Assembly: GCA_963816395.1 (NCBI GenBank)
Contig: CAWFKQ010000005.1
Span: 334,156-398,155 of the forward strand
Length of the DNA: 64,000 nt
Origin: an uncultured delta proteobacterium
GTDB taxonomy: Bacteria > Desulfobacterota > Desulfuromonadia > Desulfuromonadales > JACZKF01
Direction: 5' to 3'
Each line of letters starts with the position of its first letter. Within the stretch, counting starts at the first letter, position 1. The notes under the pieces were generated by a model. The model worked only from the letters and a program-made list of their open reading frames with translations. It did no database searches and was not told the DNA's origin. A program made the position numbers and the translations under genes. Positions 4,623 through 45,851 of the stretch are shown one piece after another.

Positions 4623-4832
4623 CCCGGGACGCGGCTTGCGGTTCGCGGTTCGCGGAAAGCTTAAGGGCCGGGACGCGGCTTGCGGTTCGCGGTTCGCGGA
4701 AAGCTTAAGGGCCGGGACGCGGCTTGCGGTTCGCGGTTCGCGGAAAGCTTAAGGGCCGGGAGGCGGTTTGCGGTTTGCGGTTCGCGGAAAGCTTTTGACC
4801 TTCGCGGCCCGCGTCCCGCGCACCGCGTTCCG
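4623..4832. repeat. Tandem array: three identical 44-bp units plus a divergent terminal unit that closes into the family hairpin
   Basis: Unit gggacgcggcttgcggttcgcggttcgcggaaagcttaagggcc starts at 4626, 4670 and 4714 (all identical). A fourth unit at 4758 diverges and ends ..gaaagcttttgaccttcgcggcccgcgtcccgcg. Each unit is itself 6 heptads + 2 nt. Units abut with no spacers. Confidence 0.9.
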
Positions 4833-4840
4833 ATTTTTAT

Positions 4841-5188: not shown

Positions 5189-7377
5189 CTTCGCTCCTTT
5201 CTTCCGCCTTGGCGGACGCTCCGCTTCTGACCTCTTCCAGGGGGACCACATGCCAGCGGTCGCGGGCCGCCCGCCGGGCCAGGTTCTCGTCGTGGGTGAA
5301 GAGGATGATCTGATGCTCCGCACCGAGCCGCTCCAGGGCCTTGAGGGTCTCCGCCAGCCGCAGCCGGTCCAGGTTGACCAGGGGATCGTCGAGGAAGAGC
5401 GGCAGATGCCGTCCCTGCGACAGGTGCCGGGTCAGGGCCAGGCGCACCGCCAGATAGATTCCGTCCACCGTGCCGCGACTGAAATGCTCGGCCGGCTGCC
5501 AGCCTCCGGCCCGGGTCGGCAACTGCAGGGAGAAATCCTCGCCCAGGCGGATGCCGTCGTAACGGCCGTGCGTGGTCATCTGCAGATAATGGCCGATTTC
5601 GGCGGCGAAGTGGTCCAGGTAGGTCCGGCGGAACTCGTCCACCGCCCCGGCGAGCAGATCGAAGGCGACGGCCAGGGCATCCTTGCGCCGGACCAGGCGC
5701 TCCTCCCTCTCCTTGAGCCGCTCCCCCTCCTCCTCGATTTCCTCCAGGTGCCCCAACTCTCCCTGCAGAGCCGCTTCCTGCCGGGTGAGCTCGAGCAGCG
5801 TCTGCTCCCGCTGACGCAGACTCTCGCCGAGAGCCGCCAGCTTCTCTTCGGCCTCCGGCAGTGCCTCGGGGGGGAGCAGGTTGGCTACGGGGGGACGGTC
5901 CCGCTCGCGCCGCTCATCCAGCACCGCCAGCTCGCGGGTCAACTGCGCCTTCTCGCCGGAGAGCTCCGCCGATTTCTCCAGTACCTGCAGGGCGCTCGCC
6001 ACCTCCCGCAGGCGCGCCGAAAGCTCCCGATGCCGGCCGAGATTCTTCTGCATCCGGGCGATTTCCACCGCCGACGGGGAGATGCCCAGACGCTTGAAAC
6101 GTTCGTCCAGCGCCGCCAGGCGCGCCTGCGCCTCCTCCCGGCGATTCTCCAGCACCTGCGCCCGGCCCTGGATCCGCCCGCGCTCGCTCCCCGCCTGGAA
6201 GACCCGCCAGAGATGCACCCCCCAGACGCCGGCAGCCACCGCCCCGGCGCCGGCGAGAGACCGACAGCAGCCAGGCGGGACGCAGCCAGGCGAGCAGGCC
6301 GCCGGCCAGGAGCAGGGCGGCGGTAAGTCCCGCCCACGGCTTCCAGGAGGGATTGGCGTGCGCCAGCAGTTCCTGGCGCATGGCCGCCGCCTCCCCCTGC
6401 AGACCGATCAGCTCTTTGCGGATCTCTTCGGCCTCCACCAGCAGCGCCGTCAGTTCCTCGGGCACCTGCCGGGGCAGGCCGGTGCGGGCCAGTTCCTTCT
6501 CCAGGTCCTGCCGCTGCTGTTCCAGTTCCCCCACCTTCTCCGACTGGCGGTTGACCCGGGAGAAGTCCTTGGCCAGAGATTCCTTCTTCTCCTCCAGATG
6601 CCATTGCCGGCGCACCCAGGCGAGGTAGCGCTCGCCCTTGCCGAATTCGCCCCGGTCGGCCTCGATCTCCTGCTGCAGGCCGGCGATCCGGGCGCGCAGC
6701 GCTGCCAGCTCCTGCACCCCTTCCCGGGCGGCAAACCAGCGCCGCTCCAGCTCGCCCATGCGCCGGCGGACCTCGTCGAGTTCACGGTCGCGCGTCTTGT
6801 CCTTCCCCCAGGGGTTCTCCCGGGTGAGGGCGAAATAGTCTTCCTGCAGCGACTGCAGGACCCGGTCGTAATCGACCTCGATGAAGCCGGAAAGGAGAGC
6901 CTTGATCTTCCCCGCCAGCCCCTGCCCGGAGATCTCCAGGCTCCCCTGGCCGAAGAAGAGGGAAGCGCGGAAGATCTCCTCCTCGGTGATGCCGAGCAGC
7001 CGCTGCAGCTGTTCGAGGTACTCGCTGCGTTCCGAGGAGCGCCCCTGGGGGGCGGCCTTTCCCTCGAAAGTATACAGGGTCTGGTAAAGGTCGTCGTGCT
7101 CGCTCAGACGCACCCGGTCGGTCAGGATATCCCGCTCCAGGCGGACGGTTCCCCCCGGTTTTTCCAGGACGAGAGCCGCCTCGCAGCTCCCCTGCCGGCC
7201 CCAGGGCCGGAAACGCTCCTTGTTGCGGGAGCCGAAGAGGACCGCCGGGATCGCCTCCATCAGGGTCGACTTGCCGGCCTCGTTGGGACCGAGAACCAGG
7301 TTCATCCCCCGGCGGAACTCGAGGGTCCGCTCGGCGAAGCGGCCGAAGTGCCGCAGCTCCAGGGTGCGCAGAATCAT
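5163..7377 (-). CDS. sbcC: SbcC/YhaN-like ATPase subunit of an SbcCD-type nuclease, one apparent frameshift
   Basis: ATG 7377 (ATGA overlap with the sbcD stop): MILRTLELRHFGRF..GPNEAGKSTLMEAI (Walker A), long coiled coil, C-terminal ..LPLFLDDPLVNLD..ILFTHDE. Frame switches from ORF 5914..7620 to ORF 5163..6239 near 6250. Confidence 0.8.
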
Positions 7378-8506
7378 GCGGCGCCTCCACCGAACAGCCG
7401 GAAGCGCACCAGCGCTTCGCGGAACGCCTCCTCGATGACCGGCCGCTGCGCCGGCGGGCGCCTCCGCCAGCAGACGCCGGGCGCGCCGGACGAAAACGCC
7501 GCGCACCGTCTGTTCCTGCTCCAGGCGGGCGGCGAAGGCACTGTCGAAAAGCCGCGTGCGGTCCTCCAGTTCCAGATGGAAGAAGGCATCGCGGCAGCGG
7601 GCGCAGCAGGGCAGACACATCGAGCGGCGCCTCGACGATGCCGGTCAGCGCGAGGCGCAGCAGCAGGTCGGGACGCCCTTTGGCGACAATCGCCTCGGCG
7701 ACCCGCCCGGCATCCTCGCAGCCGGAGAGATCAAGGCTCTCGGCCGCCAGTTCCTGGCTGTTGACCGTCACTTTTTCCACTGTCGCCCGCCCCGCCGCCA
7801 GGGTGACCAGGGCGGCGTAGCGGGGGCCGTTCTCACCGAAGCGCTTCCCCTCCGGCGAGCCGGGATAGCAGGCCCAGACCCGCCCGGCCTCCTCCAGGAG
7901 CTCGAAACCGTGGTAATGCCCCAGGGCCACGTAGTCCAGTCCCCATTCGCGCAGGGTGGCGAGGGAGAAAGGCAGATCCTTCTTTCGGTATTCCCACTCC
8001 GGACTTCCCTGGCGGGAGCCGTGCAGCAGGCCGATATGGATCCCTTCCGGGGCGCGCCGGGCCATGCCGGCCAGGGCGTCGGCAGAGGCGAAGGAGCGGT
8101 AGGCGAAGCCGTAGAGGAACACCTGCTCTCCCCCCACCGTGAGCATCGCCGGGGCCTCGACGGTCGGCGCGGCGAGCACCACCGCCCCCGGGAAATCGGC
8201 CTGCCGATACACCGAATCGGCACTCACCAGATTGTCATGGGTGCCGGGGAGAAGCACCGGCACAATTCCCCGGTCGGCCAGGCGTTTGAGGCCGGCCTGC
8301 ACCCGACCGACCAGGGCGGGTTCGGGGCGGGGGTTGTCGAACAGATCGCCGGCGACCAGAAACAATTGGCACTCGCTCTTGATCGCCAGAGTCAGCAGGC
8401 GCTCGAAGGTCTTGAGGAAGGCGTCCCGACGCGCCCCTTCCTGCCCGTCAAGAGCAGGGAAAGGGGCACCCAGGTGCAGATCGGCGGTATGCAGAAATCG
8501 GATCAT
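7374..8506 (-). CDS. sbcD: SbcD-like Mre11-family nuclease subunit, two apparent frameshifts in the C-terminal part
   Basis: MIRFLHTADLHLGAP..VAGDLFD..LPGTHDN..GHYH phosphoesterase motifs. The tail continues in two other frames (..RCRDAFFHLELEDRTRLF.. then ..RPVIEEAFREALVRFRLFGGGAA); changes near 7615 and 7455. Confidence 0.85.
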
Positions 8507-8514
8507 AAATCACT

Positions 8515-8601
8515 CGGTACGCGGTACGCGAAAGGCGTAAAACCAGGGACGCGGTACGCGAAGGTCAAAGATTTTCGCGAACCGCAAACCGCGTCCCGCG
8601 C
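8515..8601. repeat. GC-rich heptad-periodic palindromic intergenic element, fills the methylase-sbcD spacer
   Basis: cggtacgcggtacgcgaaaggcgtaaaaccagggacgcggtacgcgaaggtcaaagattttcgcgaaccgcaaaccgcgtcccgcgc; GGGACGCGGTACGCG pairs imperfectly with CGCGAACCGCAAACCGCGTCCC. Confidence 0.8.
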
Positions 8602-9391: not shown

Positions 9392-9468
9392 AGCTGCAAG
9401 CTGCAAGCTGCAAGCTAAGAGCTTAAGTTTGAATTTTTTTTCTAGCTTGCAGCTTGCAGCTTGTAGCT
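9392..9468. repeat. Long hairpin built from (AGCTGCA)n heptads: 25-bp arms, 24/25 complementary, 27-nt A/T-rich loop
   Basis: Left arm 9392..9416 agctgcaagctgcaagctgcaagct. Right arm 9444..9468 agcttgcagcttgcagcttgtagct. Loop aagagcttaagtttgaatttttttttc-like, containing CTTAAG. Confidence 0.9.
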
Positions 9469-10204
9469 TCTTTTCGCATCCAGATGAGAAACTCCCTGTT
9501 CCCTTTCGGGCCGAGGATGGGGCTTTCGGTGACTCCCAGCACCGCGCAGCCGAGTTCCGCGGCCAGCTCCCGGACCTTGTTCACCACCCGGGCGTGCTTC
9601 TCCGCTCTCCCGCACCACGCCCCCCTTGCCGACTTCCCCGCGTCCCACCTCGAACTGCGGCTTGATCAGGGCGAGCACCTCGGCATCGGCGGCCAGCAGC
9701 GCCAGGGTCGGCGGCAGGACCTTGTCGAGGGAGATGAACGAGGCGTCGATCACCGCCAGGTCCGGACGTTCGGGGAGACGGTCGGCCGTGAGGTCGCGGA
9801 TGTTGGTGCGCTCCAGGTTGACCACCCGCGGGTCCTCGCGCAGCTTCCAGGCGAGTTGACCGTAGCCGACGTCGACCGCATAGACCCGCGCCGCCCCCCG
9901 CTGCAGCAGACAATCGGTAAAACCGCCGGTGGAGGCGCCGACGTCGATGGCAACCCGCCCGCCTACCGCCACCGCGAATTCGTCCAGTGCCCGCTCCAGC
10001 TTGAGGCCGCCGCGCGACACGTAAGCGGATATCCTCTCCCTTCAGGCGCAGAGCACAGTCGGCCTCGACCTGCGCCCCCGCCTTGTCCACCGCGTGCTCG
10101 CCGACCACCACCTTGCCGGCCAGAATCAGGGCGCGCGCCCGTTCCCGGGACTGAGCCAGTCCGCGTTCCACCAGCAGCTTGTCGAGGCGTTCTTTTCTGG
10201 GCAT
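9423..10204 (-). CDS. tlyA: TlyA-family rRNA 2-prime-O-methyltransferase (S4 + FtsJ domains), two apparent frameshifts
   Basis: [34 protein letters not shown] (S4) .. [30 protein letters not shown] (SAM site) .. [15 protein letters not shown]. Pieces lie in three frames (changes near 10025 and 9610). In the corrected frame the stop is TAA 9423..9425, inside the hairpin loop. Confidence 0.85.
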
Positions 10205-10270
10205 GGGCGGGGACAGGAAAGCGCAAGGCGGTTGAAATTCCATCTTTCAGAAGCGGCCCAAGAGTAACAC

Positions 10271-10377
10271 AGGGGGAAGCGGGGAGCAAAGGGGAAACCG
10301 AGGGGCGAGGGGCGAGGGACGCGGTACGCGAAAATATTTTGACCTTCGCGCACCGCGCACCGCGCACCGCGTCCCGG
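10271..10377. repeat. GC-rich heptad-periodic palindromic intergenic element, fills the methyltransferase-tlyA spacer
   Basis: gaggggc gaggggc gagggac gcggtac gcgaaaatattttgaccttcg cgcaccg cgcaccg cgcaccg cgtcccgg; same GGGACGCGGTACGCG / TTTTGACCTTCGCG / CGCGTCCC core. Confidence 0.8.
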
Positions 10378-10382
10378 ACCTT

Positions 10383-11092: not shown

Positions 11093-12199
11093 GATTTTTC
11101 TCCCGACCACAGGCTGTACCCCCTGGATACACCTCATTCTCGGCAACGCGTATGCCAATACTCCGGCGACTGCATCCCAGACCTGCGCCAGATCCACCTC
11201 GTCGATGCAGCTGCGTTTCCCGGCCAGACAACGCCCTTCCATCACGCATTTGGGCGGTCCGAAAGCCCTGGTCTTGCGCCAGGTGCAGCCGTCCCGGCCG
11301 CCGCAGGCGATCGCCGGCACCTGGCCGGGAAGATAGATCTGCGGGCTGGTGGGACCGAAAAGGGCGACCAGCGGCGTTCCCACCGCCGCCGCCAGGTGCA
11401 TGAGTCCGGTATCGTGGCCGAGGAACAGCCGGCAGCGTGCCAGCAGGGCAGCCACCCGCCGCAGGTGCAGGGGACCGACCGCGACCGCACGCTCCGGCCG
11501 GCGCAGCCGCCGCCGTATATCCTCACCGAACTGCCGCTGCGGGCCGGCGAACAGGAGGAGGGACTCGCCGTTTTCGATCAGCCGGTCGGCGAGAGCGGCG
11601 AAGCGGGCCACCGGCCAGCGTTTGAGCGGCGAGGAAGCGACCGGCGAGAACCCCACCGGCCGCCCCGCCAGGCCGTGGGTGCGCAGAAAGCCGGCAGCAA
11701 AAGAAATTTCCGCCGCCGCCAGTTCGAGGCGGGGAACGGCGGCGGCCGGGATGCTGATCCCCCAGCCGGCCTGGACGGCGGCGTTGATCGCCGCCAGTCC
11801 GTCCAGGCCGGTGGCCAGCGCCCGATCCTGCAGGTCGCTGCCGGCATCGAGGATAGTCGCCCGGCTGTCCCAGATCGCCGCCCCGGCCCCCATGACCGCA
11901 TGCGAAGGATCGAGGACCAGGTCGAATGCCTCCGCGGCGAACCATTCCCGGATGGCGGTCCTGATCGTCGGCGTGCCGTAATCCCCCCAGTGGCGAAAGC
12001 CCCAGTCCTGCACGCAGGACAACCGGTCGACCCGCCGATCGCCCGCCAGCAGTTCCAGGGCCGGCCGCGCGCCGAGAGCCGTGATCCGCGCCGCCGGAGC
12101 GGCGCTCCGCAAGACCCCCAGGACCGGCAGCTCCATCACCAGATCGCCGATACCGTAGCGCAGACAGAGCAGGATCTTGCGGGACGCGGAAAGGTTCAT
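11093..12199 (-). CDS. Glycosyltransferase family 9 (heptosyltransferase-like) protein or domain
   Basis: N-terminal part of the 650-aa ORF 10247..12199: MNLSASRKILLCLRYGIGDLVMELPVL.. and ..LFLGHDTGLMHLAAAVGTPLVALFGPTSP.. GT9 signature. Confidence 0.75.
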
Positions 12200-13469: not shown

Positions 13470-14273
13470 TCAGGGGCGGCGGCAGCCGCCGCCGGTCGCG
13501 GCCTCGAATTCCGCCCGGTTCCAGGAGGCGCTGCAGGAGGGGTTCTCGGGATCGGGCTCGCAGAGGTAAACCTCGCGCCCCGGGCGGGCGGTCACCCGCA
13601 TGCCGCTCGAGCGCAGCATCGCTTCGGCCCCGGCATGGTTGGCGGCCCACCAGTTCGTCGGGTCATCGGCCAGCCGGTTTTCGATGAAGGCCATTTTCGG
13701 CCAACCGGGCTCGTTCATGGCGGAGCGTTCGAAAATCCCCAGGTCGGCAGTCTCGCAGACCTCCTCGCCCGGCATGGTCAGGGTCTGAAAGACCAGCAGG
13801 CGGCGCACCAGCCGGGAGACGATATCGAGTCCGAGCAGCGGGTAGCGCAGGTGGTAAAAGACCCCGAGAAAAAGGATCAGGTCGAAACTCTCCCGACAGG
13901 CGGCCAGTTCATAGACCTGCATCTGCCGAAACTCGATGCGGTTCTCCAGGCCGTACCGGCCGGCAGCCCAGCGAGCCTGAGCCAGGTAGTGGGGATTGCT
14001 GTCGATGGCGGTGACCCGGGCACCGCGCCGGGCCAGCTCGAAGCTGTAGAACCCGGCATTGCAGCCGATATCCAGGGCCTCCCAGCCATGCAGGTCAAGC
14101 GGCAGGTGGCAGGCGATCTCCTGCCATTTATAGGTGGGGAAATCGCCCAGCACATGATCGGGCGCGGTCTGACTGCCGTCCGGCAGGTGCAGGTTGTGGA
14201 ACCACGGCCGCAGGTCGCTGATGACCTGCTGAAAATCCGCACCGGCGGTACGGCTCTCGGATGATGATTGCAT
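13470..14273 (-). CDS. SAM-dependent methyltransferase (CmoB/TIGR04290-like pattern, from memory)
   Basis: Intact 267 aa; ..ALDIGCNAGFYSFELARRGARVTAIDSNP.. motif I; ..LILFLGVFYHLRYP.. Confidence 0.7.
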   Translation of the reverse strand: MQSSSESRTAGADFQQVISDLRPWFHNLHLPDGSQTAPDHVLGDFPTYKWQEIACHLPLDLHGWEALDIGCNAGFYSFELARRGARVTAIDSNPHYLAQARWAAGRYGLENRIEFRQMQVYELAACRESFDLILFLGVFYHLRYPLLGLDIVSRLVRRLLVFQTLTMPGEEVCETADLGIFERSAMNEPGWPKMAFIENRLADDPTNWWAANHAGAEAMLRSSGMRVTARPGREVYLCEPDPENPSCSASWNRAEFEAATGGGCRRP

Positions 14274-14290
14274 CGCGTGTCCTATGAGAT

Positions 14291-14379
14291 CAGTTATCAG
14301 CTGTCAGTTATCAGCTGCAAGCTAGAGCCACGAGCAGGTTCAAGGTTCAAGCTGCGAACTGCTAGCTGTGAGCTGATGG
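14291..14379. repeat. Heptad-periodic imperfect hairpin (CAGTTAT/CAGCTGT heptads), fills the phosphatase-methyltransferase spacer
   Basis: cagttat cagctgt cagttat cagctgc aagctag ... gctgcga actgcta gctgtga gctgatg gctag; arms partly complementary (atcagctgtcag vs ctgtgagctgat). Confidence 0.65.
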
Positions 14380-14992
14380 CTAGGCTTGGATCGGCAACCG
14401 GTCGCCGGTGTGGTTAAGGCAGAGCAGCCGCGGGCCGCTGTCGCGGATATCGAGGATGCTGACGGAGGCCAGACCGATCTCGAAGCGCAGCATCAGGTCC
14501 AGGGGGAAGCCGGCGTAATGGGCAATGGCCGTTTTGATCGGATCACCGTGGCTGAACAGCGCCAGGATGGACTTGGGGAATTCCCGGCGCATTGCTTCGA
14601 TCTCCGCCACCATGCGCGCCTGCACCTCGACCATCAGCTCGCCGCCGGGAATACGGGTGCCGCTGCGGAAGGTGTTGAACTGCCGCCAGCGGGGAATTTC
14701 CCCCAGCTCCTCGAAGGACATGCCGGCCCAGTCACCGAAGTCGACCTCGTGCAGCCCCTCACGGATCTCCACCTGCAGCCCGTGCCGCCGAGCCAGCGGC
14801 GCAGCGGTCTCCCGCGTCCGCTCCAGGGGACTGCTGAAAATAGCCGGCCAATGGCACCTCGGCGAGCCGCTCGGCAAGCCGTTCGGCCTGTTCGCTGCCC
14901 TGCTGGTTCAGGTGGATGCCGGCCGTCCGGCCGACGATCGTCCGGCCGACGGCATCGTTATGCCCATGGCGGATCAACAGGAAGAGGGGCAT
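14380..14992 (-). CDS. Histidine phosphatase family protein (phosphoglycerate-mutase-like), one apparent frameshift
   Basis: ATG 14992: MPLFLLIRHGHNDAV (RHG motif) .. then after a change near 14848 ..IFSSPLERTRETAAPLA..LFSHGDPIK.. Confidence 0.8.
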
Positions 14993-19284: not shown

Positions 19285-20190
19285 TCAGGCGATGGCGGCG
19301 CCCTGGACGGCCAGCCGGCCGGAGCGGCCGGGGATGGTCGCCATGACGACCTCGTGCACCGGCAGCGCTTCATCGCGCAGGGTGCGGTGCAGGCCGGAGA
19401 GGGAGACCAGCTCGTCTCCCCTTTCCCGCCAGCCCTGCAGAAGTTCCTCGAAGAAGGGAAGATAGCGCATCCCCTCCAGTTCGGCATGCAGGGTGTAGAC
19501 GTGGCCGTGCGGCGCCGGACGGCTGCTGAGCTGCAGCAGGTGAGCGGCCAGGCCGGCTTCCGTCAGGCCGCCGGTGCCGAGCAGTTCGTCCAGAGTGGGG
19601 AGGGTGGTGGGGAGTTGCGGGCAGGAGAAGACCGTCCCGCCCATGGCCGGCAGGAAGGGATGGCTGCCGCGGGTGTCGCTGCAGCAGGCAAGGCCCATGG
19701 CGTCCTGCAGGCGCAGCGCCGCGGCGCTGGTCTGCCATCCCGGAGCGCCGCAGGTGCGGGAGGGAGCGGCGAAGATCTCCCGGAAGCGGTCGGCGGCCAG
19801 GGTCAGTTCGCGCCGCGTCCACTCGTAGTCCCTGGCGGTCACCTGATCCTGCCAGCGGACATGGTCCCAGCAGTGAATGCCGACCTCAAAGCCGGCATCC
19901 CGCACCTGCCGCATGATCCCGGCGCATTTGCGGCCGATGTCCGGACCGGGCAGCAATGTGCCATAACAGAGGGTTTTCCAGCCGTAGTTGGCCCCGACGC
20001 TGGTCCGCGCCACCTTGCGCAGGAAACCGCGGCGGAAAATCCGGCGGATGGAGCGGCCGGTATGGTCGGGGCCGAGACTGAACAGGAAGGTGGCCTGGGC
20101 GCCGCAGCGCCGCAGCGCCGCCGCCAGCGCCGGCACCCCCTGGAGGGTGCCGCGGTAAGTGTCGACGTCGATTTTCAGAGCGATCTGCAT
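19285..20190 (-). CDS. arnD: 4-deoxy-4-formamido-L-arabinose-phosphoundecaprenol deformylase ArnD (NodB-type polysaccharide deacetylase)
   Basis: Intact 301 aa; MQIALKIDVDTYRGTLQGVPAL..ATFLFSLGPDHTGR..GIHCWDHVRWQD..; last gene of the arn cluster. Confidence 0.8.
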   Translation of the reverse strand: MQIALKIDVDTYRGTLQGVPALAAALRRCGAQATFLFSLGPDHTGRSIRRIFRRGFLRKVARTSVGANYGWKTLCYGTLLPGPDIGRKCAGIMRQVRDAGFEVGIHCWDHVRWQDQVTARDYEWTRRELTLAADRFREIFAAPSRTCGAPGWQTSAAALRLQDAMGLACCSDTRGSHPFLPAMGGTVFSCPQLPTTLPTLDELLGTGGLTEAGLAAHLLQLSSRPAPHGHVYTLHAELEGMRYLPFFEELLQGWRERGDELVSLSGLHRTLRDEALPVHEVVMATIPGRSGRLAVQGAAIA

Positions 20191-20196
20191 AGAAAC

Positions 20197-20275
20197 CAGT
20201 TAGAGCTTTCAGTTATCAGTTAGCAGTTTTCAGTTTTTTCAGCCTTCCACTGATAGCTGCTAACTGAAAACTTGT
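20197..20275. repeat. Heptad-periodic imperfect hairpin (CAGTTAT/CAGTTAG/CAGTTTT heptads), fills the arnA-arnD spacer
   Basis: ccagtta gagcttt cagttat cagttag cagtttt cagtttt ttcagccttccactgatagctgctaactgaaaac; tcagttagcag pairs with ctgctaactga. Confidence 0.7.
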
Positions 20276-20277
20276 TG

Positions 20278-21318
20278 TCAGATCAGCCCGCGGGCTTCCG
20301 CCACCTGTCCCCGGTAGAAATCGAAGATCAGATGCAGCGCCTGGCGCATGTCCACCTGCGGCTGCCAGCCGAGCTCGGCGCAGGTGTTGTCGATTTTCGG
20401 CACCCGGGTCTGCACGTCCTGGTAACCTTCGCCGTAGTATTCCTGCGACAGCACCTCCACCAGCCGCACCTTTTCCGCCGATTCCCGGTACTCTTCGATG
20501 CTGCGCCCCAGGTCCAGCATCATCGTCGCCAGCTCGCGCACGGAAAAGTCGTTGACCGGATTGCCGATGTTGTAGATCTTGCCGCTGGCCACCCCGTCCG
20601 GGTTCTCGATGATGCGCAGCAAGGCGTCGATGCCGTCGCTGACATAGGTGAACGCCCGCTTCTGGCGGCCGCCGTCGACCAGGCTGATGTTTTCCCCGCG
20701 CACGATATGGCCGAGGAACTGGGTCAGTACCCGGGAGCTCCCTTCCTTGGGGGTGTGGATGCTGTCCAGGCCCGGGCCGATCCAGTTGAAGGGGCGGAAG
20801 AGGGTGAAATCGAGCCGCCCTTCCATGCCGTACCCCCAGATGACCCGGTCCATGAGCTGCTTGGCGCAGGAGTAAATCCAGCGCGGCTTGTTGATCGGTC
20901 CGAGCACCAGCTCCGACTGGTAGGGATCGAAGGATTCGTCCCGGCACATCCCGTAGACCTCGGAGGTGGAGGGGAAAACGATGCGTTTGCCGTACTGCAC
21001 GCACTGGCGGACGATCGGCAGGTTGGCCTCGAAATCGAGCGAGAAGACCCGCAGCGGATCCTTCACATAGGTGGCCGGGGTGGCAATGGCCACCAGGGGC
21101 AGGACCACGTCGCACTTGCAGACATGGTATTCGACCCATTCCCGGTTGATCGTGATGTCCCCTTCGAAGAAATGGAAACGCGGATGCGCAAGCAGGTCGG
21201 CCACCCGCTCCTGGTTCATGTCCATGCCGTAGACGTGCCAGTCGGTGTCATCGATGATGCGCTGGCTGAGGTGATGGCCGATGAAACCGTTGACGCCCAG
21301 GATCAATACCTTCTTCAT
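20278..21318 (-). CDS. arnA: UDP-glucuronate decarboxylase / UDP-4-keto-pentose-forming dehydrogenase (ArnA C-terminal domain, encoded here as a separate ORF)
   Basis: Intact 346 aa; MKKVLILGVNGFIGHHL (Rossmann)..IYSCAKQLMDR (YxxxK)..; its ATG overlaps the upstream stop (ATGA). Confidence 0.85.
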   Translation of the reverse strand: MKKVLILGVNGFIGHHLSQRIIDDTDWHVYGMDMNQERVADLLAHPRFHFFEGDITINREWVEYHVCKCDVVLPLVAIATPATYVKDPLRVFSLDFEANLPIVRQCVQYGKRIVFPSTSEVYGMCRDESFDPYQSELVLGPINKPRWIYSCAKQLMDRVIWGYGMEGRLDFTLFRPFNWIGPGLDSIHTPKEGSSRVLTQFLGHIVRGENISLVDGGRQKRAFTYVSDGIDALLRIIENPDGVASGKIYNIGNPVNDFSVRELATMMLDLGRSIEEYRESAEKVRLVEVLSQEYYGEGYQDVQTRVPKIDNTCAELGWQPQVDMRQALHLIFDFYRGQVAEARGLI

Positions 21319-34707: not shown

Positions 34708-35063
34708 TGGTGGAGGTGGCGGGAATCGAACCCGCGTCCGAACGTCTTTCACGTAAGGCTTCTACATGCTTAGTCTGTATATTGGATTTAACCCGCCGGA
34801 GCTCCCACAGACAGGATATCCGACGGGCGATTCTGCTTTATTTCGCCCCGGCACCGCAGACCCTTGCCGGGACTAGCCCACTAAATTGACGTCTCAGGCC
34901 CTACGCGGGCGATAGAACATGAGACGTGACGGCAATTAAGCCGCCAGTGCGTACTGAACGTCGTTGTCGGCGTTTGTGTTTGTGCCAGTTTTTTAACGAG
35001 GCCAACTGGCGTCCCCGGCATGCCACCTTCGCTTCCGACCTCCGTCGAAACCAGGTCACCCCC
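34708..35063 (-). ncRNA. ssrA: tmRNA (SsrA)
   Basis: Minus strand: 5-prime GGGGGUGACCUGGUUUCGACGG.., tag reading frame GCC GAC AAC GAC GUU CAG UAC GCA CUG GCG GCU UAA = ADNDVQYALAA* (34936..34971), 3-prime tRNA-like end ..GGACGCGGGUUCGAUUCCCGCCACCUCCACCA. smpB is adjacent. Confidence 0.95.
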
Positions 35064-39185: not shown

Positions 39186-40028
39186 TCAAAGAAGAAAACT
39201 GTTGTCGATCAGGCGGGTTTTCCCGATCTGCACGGCCAGCAGCAGGACCGAATCGGGGGTAATCTCCGCCATGTTCTGCAGCGTCTCGCCATGGCAGATC
39301 TGCACATAATCGATTCTGGCGTCGGGCTCCCGGCCGATCCGCTCACGGACCTCCCGTCGGACTGCCTCGGCATTCCTCTCCCCATTTTTGACCATGGAGG
39401 AAGCCAAGCGGAGCGAATCGACCAGAGCGAGAGCCTGCTGCCGTTCCACAGGCGACAGATACACGTTGCGCGAGCTCATCGCCAGCCCATCCTTCTCCCG
39501 GACGATCGGCATGCCGACAATCTCGACGGGGAAGTTGAGATCAACCGCCATCCGGCGGATCACCGCCAGCTGCTGGAAGTCCTTGCGGCCGAAGTAGGCG
39601 ACGCTCGGCTGCACGATCTGGAACAGCTTGGCGACGACCGTCGTCACCCCGCGGAAATGCCCGGGGCGGCTGCGACCGCACAGGGTCTCGGTAAGCCCTT
39701 CGACATTCACGTAGGTAGCATAGCCGGCCGGGTATATTTCCCGGGCCTCCGGAGCAAAGATGAGATCGACGCCGGCCGCACGGGCCATCTCGGCATCCCG
39801 GACGAAATCGCGCGGATACTTGTCCAGATCTTCGCCGGCGCCAAACTGGGTCGGGTTGACGAAGATGGAGAGGACCAGCAGATCGCCCCGGTTCCGCCCG
39901 GCCTCCAGCAGGGAGCAATGCCCGGCGTGCAGGTATCCCATGGTCGGGATAAAGGCGATGGTTTTCCCCTGCCGGCGGGCCGCAAGGCAGAGCTTCTGCA
40001 TGGTCTGGATATCGGCGATGGTTTTCAT
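39186..40028 (-). CDS. panC: Pantoate--beta-alanine ligase
   Basis: Intact 280 aa; ..IAFIPTMGYLHAGHCSLL.. Confidence 0.95.
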   Translation of the reverse strand: MKTIADIQTMQKLCLAARRQGKTIAFIPTMGYLHAGHCSLLEAGRNRGDLLVLSIFVNPTQFGAGEDLDKYPRDFVRDAEMARAAGVDLIFAPEAREIYPAGYATYVNVEGLTETLCGRSRPGHFRGVTTVVAKLFQIVQPSVAYFGRKDFQQLAVIRRMAVDLNFPVEIVGMPIVREKDGLAMSSRNVYLSPVERQQALALVDSLRLASSMVKNGERNAEAVRREVRERIGREPDARIDYVQICHGETLQNMAEITPDSVLLLAVQIGKTRLIDNSFLL

Positions 40029-40032
40029 ATAT

Positions 40033-40104
40033 CAAGAGTCAGAGTTTGAAGGTTGAAGGTTCAGGGGAAAGTATAGCCTTTGCCAGGCCTCAGGCCTGAT
40101 CACC
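40033..40104. repeat. Short heptad direct repeats filling the panB-panC spacer (weaker member of the heptad class)
   Basis: cagagtt tgaaggt tgaaggt tcagggg ... gccaggc ctcaggc ctgatca; only two full copies per block, with weak arm complementarity. Confidence 0.4.
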
Positions 40105-40908
40105 CTATTTGAACGTATGTTCTTCCCCCGGGAATATCTCTTCCTTCACTTCGCGGATGTAATCCTCCACCCCCTGGCGAATGATGCCGGAAATGTCGGC
40201 GTACTTTTTGACGAACTTGGGGGAATATTTTTCGCATAGGCCGAGAATGTCGTGCAGAACCAGTACCTGGCCGTCGCAGTGCACGCCGGCACCAATGCCG
40301 ATAGTGGGGATGGCAACCGTTTCGGTAATCTCCCTGGCCAGAGTAGCGGGAATTCCCTCGAGGACCAGGGAAAAAGCGCCGGCCGCCTCGACCGCCCGCG
40401 CGTCAGCCAGCAACTGCCGCGCCTGCTCTTCCTGACGTCCCTGCACCTTGTATCCCCCCATGCGGTGGACCGATTGCGGGGTTAGCCCGATATGACCGAC
40501 GACCGGGATATCCATATCGACGATGGCACGAATCGTTTCCGCAACGTTTTCGCCCCCCTCAAGCTTCACTGCCTGGGCGCCCGCCTCCTTGATCAAGCGG
40601 CCGGCATTGAGCCGGGCATCACGCAGGTCGGTCTGGTAGGAGAGAAAGGGCAGATCCGCCACCACCAGAGCACCGACGGTCCCCCGCATGACCGCCCGGG
40701 TATGGTAAAGCATTTCCTCCATGGTCACCGGCAGGGTAGTGTCGTAGCCGGCGACCACTACGCCGACCGAATCGCCAACCAGCACCATGTCGATCCCCGC
40801 CTGGTCAACCAGGCGGGCCAGGGGGTAGTCGTACGCGGTGAGAACGGCAATTTTCGTCCCCTTCGCCTTCATCTCCTGCATATCCAAAATGGTTTTGCGT
40901 TTTTTCAT
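40105..40908 (-). CDS. panB: 3-methyl-2-oxobutanoate hydroxymethyltransferase
   Basis: ATG 40908: [49 protein letters not shown].. Confidence 0.95.
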
Positions 40909-41339
40909 CTCTCTCGCTCCACGCCGGCGCCCGAAAACAGAAAAGCCTTCCAGGAGCGAGTCCGAAAGGCCGTGACCAGAAGGAGATTTCTCCACCCCTT
41001 GCCGGTGCCGCTATTGCCTTCCGTCCCGGTCCCATCGGATCCAGGCGGTATTGTTTCGTTCAGTAAAACCTGCGGCTGTTCGCTCCGGTACGGGTTCCGG
41101 GCTGACCGCAACAAAATCCAAAAAAACGTTTTATCCTATACCATATGCAGCAAAAGTTGTCCAGAAAAATTCGCGACCTTCATCCCCCACCGACAGGCCG
41201 AGAACGTCAGGTGCTTCGGGCTTTTGCGGGGGGGCCGAAGATCGCAGACGGTCCCTGGGAAAACGCTGCGGGTTGGCAGTTGCATTACCGGCAGATTGCG
41301 CTAATTATATGAATGTGGGTTTGCTAACCGGAGGTGTTT

Positions 41340-42502: not shown

Positions 42503-43783
42503 TCAAATTTTCCGGGCATCGGTGATTACCCCGGCAATCGCCGTGGCAGCGGCCGTGGCTGGGCTCATCAGGTGCACCATCCCACCCTTGCCCATGCGCC
42601 CGTTGAAGTTACGGTTACTGGTGGAGGCGCAGACTTCCCCTTCCGCCAGTACCCCGTTGCTCATTCCCAGACAGGCGCCGCAGGTCGGATTGGTGACACA
42701 GAAGCCGGCATCCATGAAAATCTGGATGATCCCCTCGGCCAGGGCATCACCGAAGATCTTGGGGGTGGCGGGAGAAACGATCCCGCGCACCGAATCGGCG
42801 ATGCGCCGCCCCTGGAGAATCCCGGCAGCGATGCGCAGGTCTTCCAGCCGGCCGTTGGTGCAGGTGCCGATGTATACCTGATCGACGGGAGTACCGGACA
42901 GCTCTTTCGCCGCCTTGACGCAGTCCGGCTTGAAGCCATAGGTGACCTGCGGTTCCAGGTCGGAGAGATCGAAGTCGAGAACCTTTTCGTAGGCGGCGTC
43001 AGAATCGGAATGCCACAGCCGGAAATCGGCCAGGGCGGCATCCCGACTGGCATAGTCGTTCTGGATAAACGGCCAGAGGTAATCGACCGTGGTTGCATCG
43101 GGCAGACAGATGCCGGAAGTACCGCCGGCCTCGATCGCCATATTGCACAGAGTCATCCGCGATTCCATGGACATGGCATCGACGACCGGTCCACGGAATT
43201 CGATCACCCGGTCGGTAGCGCCATTCACCCCGAGACGGCCGATGACGAAGAGAATGGCGTCCTTGGCGTAGACCCCCGGGGCCAGATGCCCATTGAGGTT
43301 GATGCGGATCGTCTTCGGTTCACGGAAAGCGCATACACCCTTGAGGATCCCCACCTCCAGATCGGTAGTGCCGACACCAGCGGCAAAAGCGCCGAAGGCG
43401 CCATGGGTGCAGGTGTGGCTGTCCCCCATGATGACCGTGTAGCCGGGGCGGATATATCCCTTCTCCGGGAAGAGGGCGTGACAGACGCCGTTACGGCCGA
43501 CATCGAAGAAATCGGTGATGGCGTGGCGGCGGGCCCAGTCGCGAAGCATCTTGGCCTGGGTGGCGGTTTTACTGTCCTTGGACGGAGTCACATGATCGAT
43601 GACCGCTTTGATTTTGCTGCGGTCGAAAACCCTATCCTTGCCGCGCCAGACAAGATCGGCAATGGCCACCGGAGTGGTGATCTCGTGGCAGAGGACCCGG
43701 TCGAGATCGAGGACCTTGGTCCCGGGAAAGGGCTCGTCCCGAAGATGGGCATCAAAGATTTTTTCCGCAATATTCTTTCCCAT
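42503..43783 (-). CDS. leuC: 3-isopropylmalate dehydratase large subunit
   Basis: Intact 426 aa aconitase-family protein; ..GDSHTCTHGAFGAFA.., ..CTNGRLEDL.., ..CGACLG.. Confidence 0.95.
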   Translation of the reverse strand: MGKNIAEKIFDAHLRDEPFPGTKVLDLDRVLCHEITTPVAIADLVWRGKDRVFDRSKIKAVIDHVTPSKDSKTATQAKMLRDWARRHAITDFFDVGRNGVCHALFPEKGYIRPGYTVIMGDSHTCTHGAFGAFAAGVGTTDLEVGILKGVCAFREPKTIRINLNGHLAPGVYAKDAILFVIGRLGVNGATDRVIEFRGPVVDAMSMESRMTLCNMAIEAGGTSGICLPDATTVDYLWPFIQNDYASRDAALADFRLWHSDSDAAYEKVLDFDLSDLEPQVTYGFKPDCVKAAKELSGTPVDQVYIGTCTNGRLEDLRIAAGILQGRRIADSVRGIVSPATPKIFGDALAEGIIQIFMDAGFCVTNPTCGACLGMSNGVLAEGEVCASTSNRNFNGRMGKGGMVHLMSPATAAATAIAGVITDARKI

Positions 43784-43803: not shown

Positions 43804-43873
43804 AAGGTATCAGGTGCCAGGTATCAGGAGCCAGGATTTCATCAGGAATTTTTGTACCTGCTACCTGTTTCCT
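43804..43873. repeat. Heptad-periodic imperfect hairpin (AGGTATC/AGGTGCC heptads), fills the leuA-leuC spacer
   Basis: aggtatc aggtgcc aggtatc aggagcc aggattt catcaggaatttttgt acctgct acctgtt tcc; caggtatcagg pairs with cctgctacctg (10/11). Confidence 0.65.
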
Positions 43874-43878
43874 TATAT

Positions 43879-45417
43879 CTACAGATGAACGCTGGTGCGT
43901 TTGACCACCGAAGCCATCTTATTGAGGGCGTTGAGGTAGGCCTTGGCGCTGGCGACGATGATATCGGGGTGGGCGCCCTGTCCGAGGACCTCGCGGCCGT
44001 CTTCCTCCAGGCGCACCGTGCATTCCCCCTGGGCATCGGTGCCACCGGTAATCGCCCCGACCGAGAACTGCAGCAGTCGGGCCTGGCTCCGGGTCAGCTT
44101 CTTGATGGCCTTGAAGGTCGCATCGACCGGCCCATCTCCCATGACCGCGGTCTTTCTAACCCTGCCATCCACCTCCAGTTCGACGGTAGCCGTCGGGGCG
44201 GCGAATGAGCCTGAAGCGACATTCATCTGCCGCAGCCGATAGCGTTCCGGCACCCGGATGATTTCATCGGCAACGATGGCGTCCAGATCCTCATCGAAAA
44301 TTTCCTTTTTCTGGTCAGCCAGTGACTTGAAGCGGACGAAAGCCTTTTCGATGTCCTCCTTGCCGAGCTCATAACCAAGCTCCTTCAGGCGGTCAATAAA
44401 GGCATGTCTACCGGAGTGCTTTCCCAGCACCAGTTTGTTCTGATTGAGGCCGATCGACTCGGGCGTCATGATCTCATAGGTCGATTTTTCCATCAAGACC
44501 CCATGCTGGTGGATCCCTGCTTCGTGAGCAAAAGCGTTGGCCCCGACTACGGCTTTGTTCGGTTGGACGACGATGCCGGTGATGGTGGAGAGCAGTTTGC
44601 TGGCTGCATAGATATGCTCGGTCATAACCTTGGTGGCAAAGGGGAGAATATCGTGGCGGGTGCGCAGGGCCATCACCACCTCCTCCAGAGAACAGTTGCC
44701 GGCCCGTTCGCCGATACCGTTGATGGTGCATTCCACCTGCTCGGCACCAGCCTGAATTGCCGCCAGGGAGTTGGCGACCGCCAGCCCCAGATCGTTATGG
44801 CAGTGGACGGAGAGAATCGCCTGCTCGACGTTCGCCACGTTTTCCTTCAAGTACTTGATGAGGTTGAAGTATTCGAAGGGGATGGTGTAGCCGACGGTGT
44901 CCGGGATGTTGACCACCTTGGCGCCGGCCTCGATAACTGCCTCGACGATTTTGGCCAGAAACGGCAGACGGGTGCGGGCGGCGTCCTCTGCCGAGAACTC
45001 GACGTTGGGAGTGTAGCGGGCGGCCCGCCGGACCGCTTTGATCGCCGTCTCCACAACCTGGTCCTCACTCATCTTCAACTTGTGCTGCATATGAATGTCA
45101 CTGGTGGCGATGAAGGTATGGATGCGGCCGCGCTCACCGGCGAATTTCAGGGCTTCCCAGGCCCGGTCGATGTCCATGTCGTTGGCCCGGCAGAGGCCGG
45201 CGATCTGTGGCCCTCTGATGGTCTGGGCGATCTTTTTGACCGCCTCGAAATCCCCATCCGAGGCGATGGGAAAGCCTGCCTCGATCACGTCGACATTCAA
45301 CTTCTCAAGTTGATGGGCGATGCGCAGCTTCTCATCGATGTTCATGCTGGCGCCAGGCGACTGCTCGCCATCGCGCAGAGTGGTATCGAAAATCTGGATC
45401 ATCTTCGGCTTGTCCAT
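43879..45417 (-). CDS. leuA: 2-isopropylmalate synthase
   Basis: Intact 512 aa; [25 protein letters not shown].. Confidence 0.95.
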
Positions 45418-45574: not shown

Positions 45575-45815
45575 GACATAAATAAAAAACTCCCGCCCCA
45601 TCCAGGGGCGAGAGCAGAAGCTTCGCGGTACCACCCTGATTCACCCGCCGCCTTTCTCACGCTGCAGCGGGCCTTGTTGTCCTTTACGCAGACTCACGGC
45701 ACCGGCTAAGCTGCCACTGGCAGACTCACCGATGCGGCTCCGAGGCGAGTTCGATTCCTTCCTGTACCGGCTTGCAGCGACCGCCGACTCTCTGCGACAG
45801 GGGGGAGAATCTACT
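45575..45815 (-). promoter_or_regulatory. T-box leader (tRNA-sensing riboswitch) with intrinsic terminator, upstream of leuA; probable Leu specificity
   Basis: Minus strand: AGAGA box gcAGAGAGtcgg (about 45787..45796); T-box sequence aaucAGGGUGGUACCGCGaag (core 45624..45637); terminator CUCGCCCC-UGGA-UGGGGCGGGAG + UUUUUUAUUU (45581..45613). Candidate specifier GAA-CUC-G. Confidence 0.85.
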
Positions 45816-45851
45816 ACTCCTCTTCAACGCCTTTCCTTGTTATGTCTGCCT

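Follow-up and report, generated by a model that had tools for sequence, protein, structure and literature searches.

What do the short spacers built of tandem heptanucleotides in the genome of an uncultured delta proteobacterium have in common, a form only or a sequence as well, and how did they come to lie where they do? The locus that raises this question surrounds positions 14291-14379 of a 64,000-nucleotide (nt) stretch of contig CAWFKQ010000005.1 (GenBank assembly GCA_963816395.1, order Desulfuromonadales), this whole stretch being called the window below. A preliminary description had grouped it with three further spacers as sequence-unrelated loci that share one architecture of heptads arranged in imperfect hairpins. 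The present analysis leads to another reading, to which we give a probability of about 0.6: the spacers at 14291, 20197 and 43804 would be copies, now diverged, of small non-coding palindromic elements that form a single lineage-specific family, the hairpin at 9392 would belong to the same family, and the spacer at 40033 would probably be a decayed copy. These loci are as follows.

14283-14386 (the 14291 element): palindromic element of CTGA heptads in the 106-nt gap leading from a His-phosphatase gene to a TIGR04290-type methyltransferase gene; assigned from its repeats, inverted arms, heptad profile and relatives without the element
20197-20275: palindromic element of CTGA heptads in the gap leading from an epimerase gene to a polysaccharide-deacetylase-like gene; assigned from repeats, fold z-score, CTG core and inverted arms
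43804-43880: element of CCTG heptads in the gap leading from a presumed leuA to leuC; assigned from repeats, fold z-score, CTG core, inverted arms and alignment
40033-40104: doubtful member in the panB-panC gap, with TTGAAGG x2.3 (40046-40061) and CAGGCCT x2
9392-9469: almost perfect hairpin built of AGCTGCA/AGCTTGC heptads, with sequence similarity to the 14291 element

A heptad family with a CTGA core

The main elements span 77-104 nt. Read outward from the centre, each of their arms consists of arrayed heptads that contain CTG(A) in phase. At 14291, the left array (about 14289-14325) is composed of TCAGTTA/TCAGCTG heptads, the centre holds AGGTTCA x2.3 (14336-14351) and the right array (about 14352-14386) reads CTGCGAA CTGCTAG CTGTGAG CTGATGG, while the inverted arms 14296-14329 and 14344-14377 are 34 nt long, 71% complementary and 14 nt apart. 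The 20197 element has a left array at 20197-20245 and a right array at 20249-20272, contains TAACTGA three times, two of them in tandem, and its 24-nt arms (20211-20234 and 20249-20272) are 88% complementary, or 83% in a register shifted by 7. At 43804, a long left array of AGGTATC/AGGTGCC units (43804-43845) is followed by a short right one (43855-43880; ACCTGCT ACCTGTT TCCTTAT), with 24-nt arms (43805-43828 and 43857-43880) that are 75% complementary. The 40033 spacer has AGGTTSAAGGTTCA in common with the centre of the 14291 element, and the inverted-arm search returned no pair in it. The hairpin potential first attributed to all four spacers is therefore retained for three of them (71-88% complementarity) and not for the fourth. 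That slippage does occur, as also put forward at that time, is shown by a perfect 14-nt x2.0 duplication at 14290-14317 (100%) and by a 14-nt x2.2 repeat at 43805-43835 (94%), both detected by Tandem Repeats Finder (TRF).

In the 64 kb to which all window counts refer, the pattern (CTGNNNN)x3 followed by CTG is matched four times against 0.01 expected, on the minus strand in left arms and on the plus strand in right arms, and the pattern (CTGANNN)x2 followed by CTGA, with at most one mismatch, six times against 0.2 expected; the matches to both patterns lie only in these spacers. All five exact TAACTGA copies of the window sit in the 14291 and 20197 spacers, at most two in tandem, where they alternate with CAGCTGA, AAACTGC and similar units. 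The consensus of 29 heptads is A-N-C-T-G-A-T, with C and T present in 29/29, A and G in 23/29, and the remaining three positions conserved at 38-55%. Besides, alignment to the 14291 element gives z-scores of 6.7 for 9392, 6.5 for 20197, 4.7 for 43804 and 4.0 for 40033, values that are somewhat generous in that they derive from mononucleotide shuffles of repetitive sequence, although the common units can be recognized by eye, and different loci of the window have the stretches CTGATAACTGA and GCTCT(T)AGCTTGCAGCT in common. Judged from these comparisons, the 14291, 20197 and 43804 spacers appear to be one sequence family, and the phased CTG(A) core, the clustering of TAACTGA and the alignments (z 4.0-6.7) contradict the statement that the spacers are unrelated in sequence. 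The companion statement, that form is kept while sequence differs, is valid across genomes, where other heptads are found at operon junctions, but not within the window, where one A-N-C-T-G-A-T family is seen.

The period of seven itself was correctly recognized from the start. At a score of 30, TRF reported 52 rows for the window, 24 of them with a period of 7, 14 or 21, whereas 40 block-wise dinucleotide shuffles yielded 2.6 such rows on average and 6 at most. When thresholds are set to the same tail probability per lag, 8 arrays are found at lag 7 against 0-1 at lags 5, 8, 10 and 11, and phased trinucleotide cores are matched 70 times at lag 7, while lags 5, 8 and 10 give 0, 4 and 2 matches. 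The period-7 excess in the window is real, strong and far beyond chance. In terms of density, 16 lag-7 arrays occur in the 64-kb window, compared to 26 in 1,378 kb of related loci.

Position between co-directional genes

The spacers are indeed short and located between co-directional genes, as had been proposed, all of these genes lying on the minus strand with Pfam support for most of them. Nearly all window genes are on this strand, and the ab initio gene models being rough, the argument is restricted to Pfam-supported genes. The flanking genes are:

14380-14877, minus strand: His_Phos_1 gene (Pfam)
13470-14273, minus strand: TIGR04290-type methyltransferase gene (Pfam)
20278-21318, minus strand: NAD-epimerase gene (Pfam)
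19285-20190, minus strand: polysaccharide-deacetylase-like gene (Pfam)
43879-45417, minus strand: presumed leuA, a 512-amino-acid (aa) open reading frame (ORF) called from an upstream T-box leader and synteny, outside the Pfam scan
42503-43783, minus strand: leuC, aconitase-family ORF (Pfam)
40105-40995, minus strand: panB (Pfam)
39186-40028, minus strand: panC (Pfam)

In every case the array that reads CTGA on the mRNA strand stops 6-21 nt short of the downstream start codon, and on this strand the long array of the 43804 element lies directly upstream of the leuC ribosome-binding site AAGGAG.

A separate observation concerns the starts at 20190 and 40028 (panC), where (regions 20191-20215 and 40029-40045) no Shine-Dalgarno-like sequence is present within about 15 nt and the heptad array reaches almost to the start codon. 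Both starts recall the genes without Shine-Dalgarno sequence that are found behind TAACTGA repeats in 'Maribeggiatoa'.

Orthologous spacers in related genomes

The best LeuC match among species-representative genomes (89%) comes from metagenome-assembled genomes of Desulfuromonadales, and a metagenome scan with the methyltransferase gave no match above 73% identity. In two relative species (loci L161-L165), the methyltransferase is 80-82% identical and the genes follow one another as in the window, namely GAF-kinase, 316-aa gene, His_Phos, methyltransferase. In both, the His_Phos/methyltransferase gap measures 8 nt, the stop codon overlaps the ribosome-binding site, and this ancestral-type gap contains no heptad seed. 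At the aligned junction, the window reads ...CCTAG, then CCATCAG...CTGATCTCA, then TAGGACACGCGATG, and the relative reads ...CCTGAGGACCAACATG. The insert of about 100 nt has TAG on both sides (14280-14285 CCTAG ... 14380-14384 CATAG), the left one being the stop codon of the upstream gene; this TAG...TAG could be a 3-nt target-site duplication or the result of chance.

The panB-panC gap is 18 nt long in L004, and in the closest relative L001 (7588-7736) it carries a different palindromic insert of 149 nt, GCTGATGAAAAACGCCCATCTGCGGCG ... CGCCTTGCATCTGGGCATTTTTGATCAGC, which is not heptadic. The length of the leuA-leuC gap varies between 23 and about 500 nt over 80 genomes, and CTGA/CCTG-type heptad arrays occur in it only in the closest relatives L001, L003 and L005, with ATTCTGA and CTCCTGA units in L001. 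In the relatives compared, no element is present in the His_Phos/methyltransferase and (in L004) panB-panC gaps, and arrays are present in the leuA-leuC gap of L001, L003 and L005. The junction between the FtsJ gene and its neighbour was considered as a third empty site and rejected for lack of orthology, the downstream gene being TP_methylase in the window and a SIS gene in the relatives.

Relation to described repeats

The preliminary description considered such elements undescribed in Deltaproteobacteria and regarded the short tandemly repeated repetitive (STRR) sequences of heterocystous cyanobacteria as their closest analogue. Neither view can be maintained. The STRR sequences are tandem 7-nt units, dispersed, intergenic and belonging to several sequence families per genome; they form mainly direct arrays, convergent pairs not being their defining trait. 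They have only the 7-nt period in common with the window, the host here being a member of Desulfuromonadales and the units being different. Three other systems, from Geobacter metallireducens, from Xanthomonas and from the organisms carrying TAACTGA repeats, are closer.

In G. metallireducens, Aklujkar et al. (2009, PMC2700814) recognized sites of a 'class 3' (Gmet_I3xx) in eight pairs, each site made of about five tandem MTYCTGA heptamers and the two sites of a pair pointing outward from opposite strands; the sister species G. sulfurreducens has none of these sites, and binding of integration host factor (IHF) or HU was proposed as a guess. Of six listed pairs, five have one gene ending on their one side and the next gene starting on the other, and the sixth is located between convergent genes (PMC2700814). 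The likeness to the window includes the order Desulfuromonadales, tandem heptads with a CTGA core, outward-reading pairs on opposite strands, a location between co-directional genes with the downstream array abutting the ribosome-binding site, and a span of about 75-115 nt for a pair compared to 77-104 nt here, the 40033 spacer having no such pair. The units T-Y-C-T-G-A-M and A-N-C-T-G-A-T, however, have the CTGA core alone in common, and the window copies are more degenerate. By this analogy, the window elements are best regarded as being of the same kind as the Gmet_I3xx pairs.

In Xanthomonas, Rehm et al. (2015, PMC4692102) found 89-93% of the GGGAATC arrays to be intergenic, mostly between co-directional ORFs and near the upstream one, with 70-75 convergent opposite-strand array pairs per genome; the arrays differ in length between species and are transcribed. 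Unlike the window heptads, this unit is G-rich and quadruplex-forming, and 83% of the arrays are kept at the same sites between two species, whereas the two testable sites of the window are empty in relatives. As for the TAACTGA repeats, MacGregor (2015, PMC4679880) described them in marine Beggiatoaceae, cyanobacteria and Bacteroidetes as intergenic, forward sets of 2-6 copies, mostly located just upstream of start codons and providing stops in all three frames, with 169 direct sets and one indirect. CTGATAA is a rotation of TAACTGA, all five exact copies of which fall in two of the window elements; nevertheless, the published sets are nearly all direct, far more uniform and from distant taxa, while the window arrays are convergent pairs. 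According to the summary of Mrazek (2007) given in PMC4679880, most prokaryotic genomes have heptanucleotides as their most frequent class of long simple repeats, and a polymerase-footprint explanation has been proposed for their excess.

Two observations bear on such repeats in viral and other genomes. Perfect (TAACTGA)x3 was found in 107 stretches of IMG/VR viral contigs (loci L166-L245), and two composition-matched control heptamers, tripled likewise, in 3 and 34 stretches (L273-L309), a difference that hints at a spread of TAACTGA arrays with viral or mobile DNA. In Geomonas diazotrophica (L060, 20592-20687), a (GGGGACT)n array of about 13 units was noticed; a G-quadruplex heptamer of GGGGACT type has been reported in Nostoc by Rehm et al. 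(PMC4692102).

Heptad arrays with an inverted partner are also present at operon junctions of other genomes, built from quite different units. CAATTGA arrays occupy the leuC-leuD gap of several Geomonas species and of Geomesophilobacter, a gap that exists in Geomonas and relatives in a short form of 15-23 nt (19-23 nt within Geomonas) and in a long form of 112-172 nt with the arrays (compared in L056, L058, L060, L066, L068 and L072 at about 11280-11450, in L073, and in L064, L067, L070, L076 and L077). The full convergent CAATTGA pair is seen in L056 and L072, the latter having a second CAATTGA element at 173-404, and in L073 the same gap (5479-5566) holds a GGTGAAR/YTTCACC hairpin. Further units are GTGACGA (L037), ATCCAGA (L022), AGCTGAN (L027) and GCCAAGA (L031), and, on contigs probably of other phyla, GAATTCG (L084), GCTGANN (L085), GGGTGTC (L121), and GTGGCGA and GGGACGC (L125). 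In both locus sets, lag 7 is the top period that is not a multiple of three, and an inverted partner is present for about 40-65% of the lag-7 arrays. The architecture is already published for G. metallireducens, Xanthomonas and other bacteria.

As a side observation on these units, many of the AT-richer heptad families compared (in L005, L022, L028, L032, L037, L073, L085 and the window) have TGA in phase on one strand, namely TAACTGA, MTYCTGA, CAATTGA, ATTTTGA, CGAGTGA, AAGGTGA and ACCCTGA. Such heptads close all three reading frames every 21 nt, a property that the GC-rich families do not have. A rule placing the stop codons always in the 3' arm was discarded: it holds for the window family, G. 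metallireducens class 3 and L085, and is reversed in Geomonas CAATTGA, L073, L037 and L005.

The elements also resemble repetitive extragenic palindromic (REP) sequences, bacterial interspersed mosaic elements (BIMEs) and MITEs (miniature transposable elements with inverted repeats) in being short, non-coding, imperfectly palindromic, multi-copy, located between co-directional or convergent genes, and present or absent between related genomes. Differences from REPs are the absence of the GTAG tetranucleotide at the element ends, the absence of a REP-associated tyrosine transposase (RAYT), or Y1-transposase, domain among the 20 window ORFs scanned, and the internal 7-nt periodicity, which classical REPs do not have. 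With regard to MITEs, the window offers inverted arms and an empty site in relatives, with the TAG...TAG flank at one element only.

Folding of the elements

Fold z-scores were computed against dinucleotide shuffles on both strands. They are about -5 on both strands for 20197, -1.1 on the mRNA strand and -2.9 on the other for 14291, and -1.9 and -2.4, respectively, for 43804, while the 40033 spacer gives a null result (-0.5 and -1.4). The 9392 hairpin reaches -5 to -8, the range being -4 to -8 when the GC-rich copy at 10296 described below is included. Over the nine elements compared, the plus (antisense) strand is the better folder in 5/9, so that the mismatches between arms appear as C.A and not as G.U in the sense RNA, where there is no sign of a bias toward G.U. 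The selection for structure initially considered is thus not borne out, the two comparable orthologous spacers of relatives being without the element and the sense RNA not being the better folder.

Neither a terminator-like GC-rich stem with its T-tract nor any promoter match exceeding chance is present in the four spacers. No Rfam model matches them at its gathering score, and the sole match at permissive E-values is a chance miRNA hairpin (E 1.5). Readings of the four spacers as terminators, promoters or Rfam RNAs were rejected on the basis of these searches.

Origin and possible role of the elements

Under the preferred reading, each element would consist of two convergent arrays of 3-6 A-N-C-T-G-A-T heptads with 5'-CTGA-3' running outward from a centre of 14-28 nt. 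It would be inserted where one cistron has its stop codon and the following one its ribosome-binding site, as the 8-nt gap of relatives shows for 14291 and as may be presumed for the others. Slipped-strand duplication of 7 or 14 nt at a time would then make the arrays grow, shrink and diverge, as shown by the 14-nt duplication and by the arm pairing shifted by 7, and the preference for 7-nt units would be the known prokaryotic heptanucleotide bias. The elements are most likely transcribed by read-through and could form an imperfect stem-loop in polycistronic RNA, since they have no T-tract and lie inside the pan and leu gene runs. They would most likely be tolerated passengers of the REP/MITE type rather than conserved regulators, any effect on mRNA stability or translation being a side effect. 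The relatedness of multiple copies, the empty orthologous site, the lineage-specific density, the existence of a GC-rich family with a fixed centre and the recent 14-nt duplications all argue for dispersed heptad palindromes of a REP/MITE-like kind.

Several points weigh against this interpretation. The window yielded neither a mobilising enzyme nor a parent element nor a clear target-site duplication, the 3-nt TAG...TAG flank being confined to one element, and the copy number of the family is known from 64 kb alone. In addition, the copies are considerably diverged from one another, which is unusual for a recently active mobile family, and the element at leuA-leuC may be older than the species, since CCTG(A)-type arrays are present in this spacer of the four most closely related genomes, which could mean long retention and hence some function there. 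Above all, the fact that heptad positions are conserved so unequally, C and T being invariant and three positions free, is not predicted by slippage followed by neutral decay; together with the CTGA core in distant phyla, it is the main observation left unexplained by a REP/MITE-like origin. This unevenness hints at sequence recognition.

If it does reflect recognition, the arrays could be binding sites for a protein that reads the CTGA core every 7 nt or base pairs (bp) and sets downstream translation or transcription, thereby forming a dispersed regulatory network. Candidates would be, on DNA, a nucleoid-associated or omega-type ribbon-helix-helix (RHH) protein, or IHF/HU as guessed by Aklujkar et al., and, on RNA, an S1-, Csp- or HutP-like factor. 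Besides the heptad profile, this explanation would account for the finding of one core, CTGA, both in class 3 of G. metallireducens and in the TAACTGA repeats (Beggiatoaceae, cyanobacteria, Bacteroidetes), for the distance of 6-21 nt between the mRNA-strand array and the start codon, and for the panC start, and apparently the 20190 start, without Shine-Dalgarno sequence as in the Beggiatoa cases. Proteins reading 7-bp or 7-nt repeats do exist, as illustrated by the heptads of the omega repressor and by HutP with NAG-N4. Nevertheless, the orthologous spacers of relatives lack the elements, other genomes show the same architecture with quite different heptads, the flanking genes are of unrelated function (lipopolysaccharide-type sugar genes, pan and leu) and no candidate is encoded nearby, the 20 window ORFs scanned with Pfam including no transposase, IHF/HU or RHH gene; we therefore consider a binding-site function unlikely. 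Its broadest version, in which CTGA every seven nucleotides would be a recognition code for a nucleic-acid-binding factor common to Desulfuromonadales, Beggiatoaceae, cyanobacteria and Bacteroidetes and possibly spread on mobile or viral DNA, is a long shot; were it true, the convergent pairs of Desulfuromonadales would be a dispersed post-transcriptional or nucleoid-level control element at cistron junctions.

Two further explanations, each of which we hold to be improbable, concern the RNA and the local origin of the repeats. Stem-loop roles in mRNA are established for some Escherichia coli REP elements, and the window elements could likewise be selected RNA structures giving protection from 3' exonucleases, processing sites or translation uncoupling in polycistronic mRNA. 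The location inside co-directional gene runs between stop codon and ribosome-binding site, the marked folding of 20197 and 9392 and the transcription of the Xanthomonas heptamer arrays (PMC4692102) would fit, but the z-scores of the mRNA strand are modest at 14291, 43804 and 40033, and selection on mRNA structure is disfavoured by the comparison of strands, by the recent 14-nt duplication in one arm of the 14291 element that is not mirrored in the other, and by the absence from orthologous sites. In the scenario of the preliminary description, each array would have arisen on the spot by slippage on a local seed, the palindrome being produced by hairpin-templated strand switching with no transfer of sequence between loci. 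This would agree with the perfect local duplications, with the heptad variants that differ from locus to locus, with the CAATTGA and GGTGAAR heptads occupying the same leuC-leuD junction in Geomonas and L073, respectively, and with the general heptanucleotide bias of prokaryotic tandem repeats, which has been ascribed to polymerase slippage (PMC4679880). It does not predict, however, that loci of the window share a consensus and the stretches CTGATAACTGA and GCTCT(T)AGCTTGCAGCT, and this sharing disfavours a purely local origin; moreover, the empty gap is only 8 nt long without heptad seed, and the upstream gene ends in a sequence that does not match the heptads, for which reason seeding from its last codons and stop was rejected. 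Finally, chance low-complexity sequence without any shared property has next to no probability: the 40033 spacer taken alone is compatible with it, but the shuffle controls exclude chance for period 7 and for the phased CTG core, and three of the four spacers already refute it.

We know of no demonstration of why the unit is 7 nt or of what heptanucleotide arrays do. What the window adds is a Desulfuromonadales lineage densely seeded with two heptad families, the AT-richer of which shares its CTGA core with the class-3 sites of G. metallireducens and with the TAACTGA repeats known from unrelated phyla, and at least one copy that is a clean insertion between stop codon and ribosome-binding site. 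The uneven conservation of the heptad offers a concrete handle for a binding-protein search; apart from it, these data belong to ordinary repeat biology and alter no current view.

A GC-rich heptad family and other features of the window

The second, GC-rich heptad family is represented by the following copies.

1720-1830: CGCGGTN arrays around GAAGGTCAAA
2763-2835: copy of the family
4624-4835: tandem half-element, then a single right arm
8512-8600: copy of the family
10296-10380: CGAGGGG x2.9, then CGCGGTA ... CGCGCAC x3.6

The family has the termini GGGACGCGG...CCGCGTCCC and a fixed asymmetric centre, GAAGGTCAAA, present in four exact copies and one with a single mismatch; as this centre occurs in both orientations, the copies have the look of dispersed elements. 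In most of them the centre carries TCAANNNNTT, which is the IHF consensus core, and thereby resembles the IHF site of the E. coli BIME/RIP elements. At 4624-4794, a 44-nt unit made of left arm and centre is repeated in tandem x3.9 (97%) ahead of the single right arm, and this copy appears, from its sequence, to be a higher-order duplication of half an element.

Other features concern the genes of the window. Rfam detects a tmRNA (34708-35063, minus strand, 236.6 bits), a pan motif upstream of panB (41017-41103, 39.7 bits, the gathering score being 36.2) and, ahead of the presumed leuA, a T-box leader (45601-45836, 109.3 bits), matches that fit an origin from Desulfuromonadales. An FtsJ/TlyA-like gene (9442-10243) is split over two frames, with ORFs at 9442-10020 and 9581-10243 and one in-frame stop; its 3' end enters the right arm of the 9392 hairpin and terminates at a CTAG there, and the 9392 insert seems to have replaced the original end of this gene. 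Lastly, SbcC-like (AAA_23/SMC_N) and SbcD-like (Metallophos) ORFs are located at 5914-8506, between the palindromic elements at 4624-4835 and 8512-8600, their calls overlapping by about 840 nt with uncertain starts; SbcC and SbcD form a hairpin-cleaving nuclease pair.

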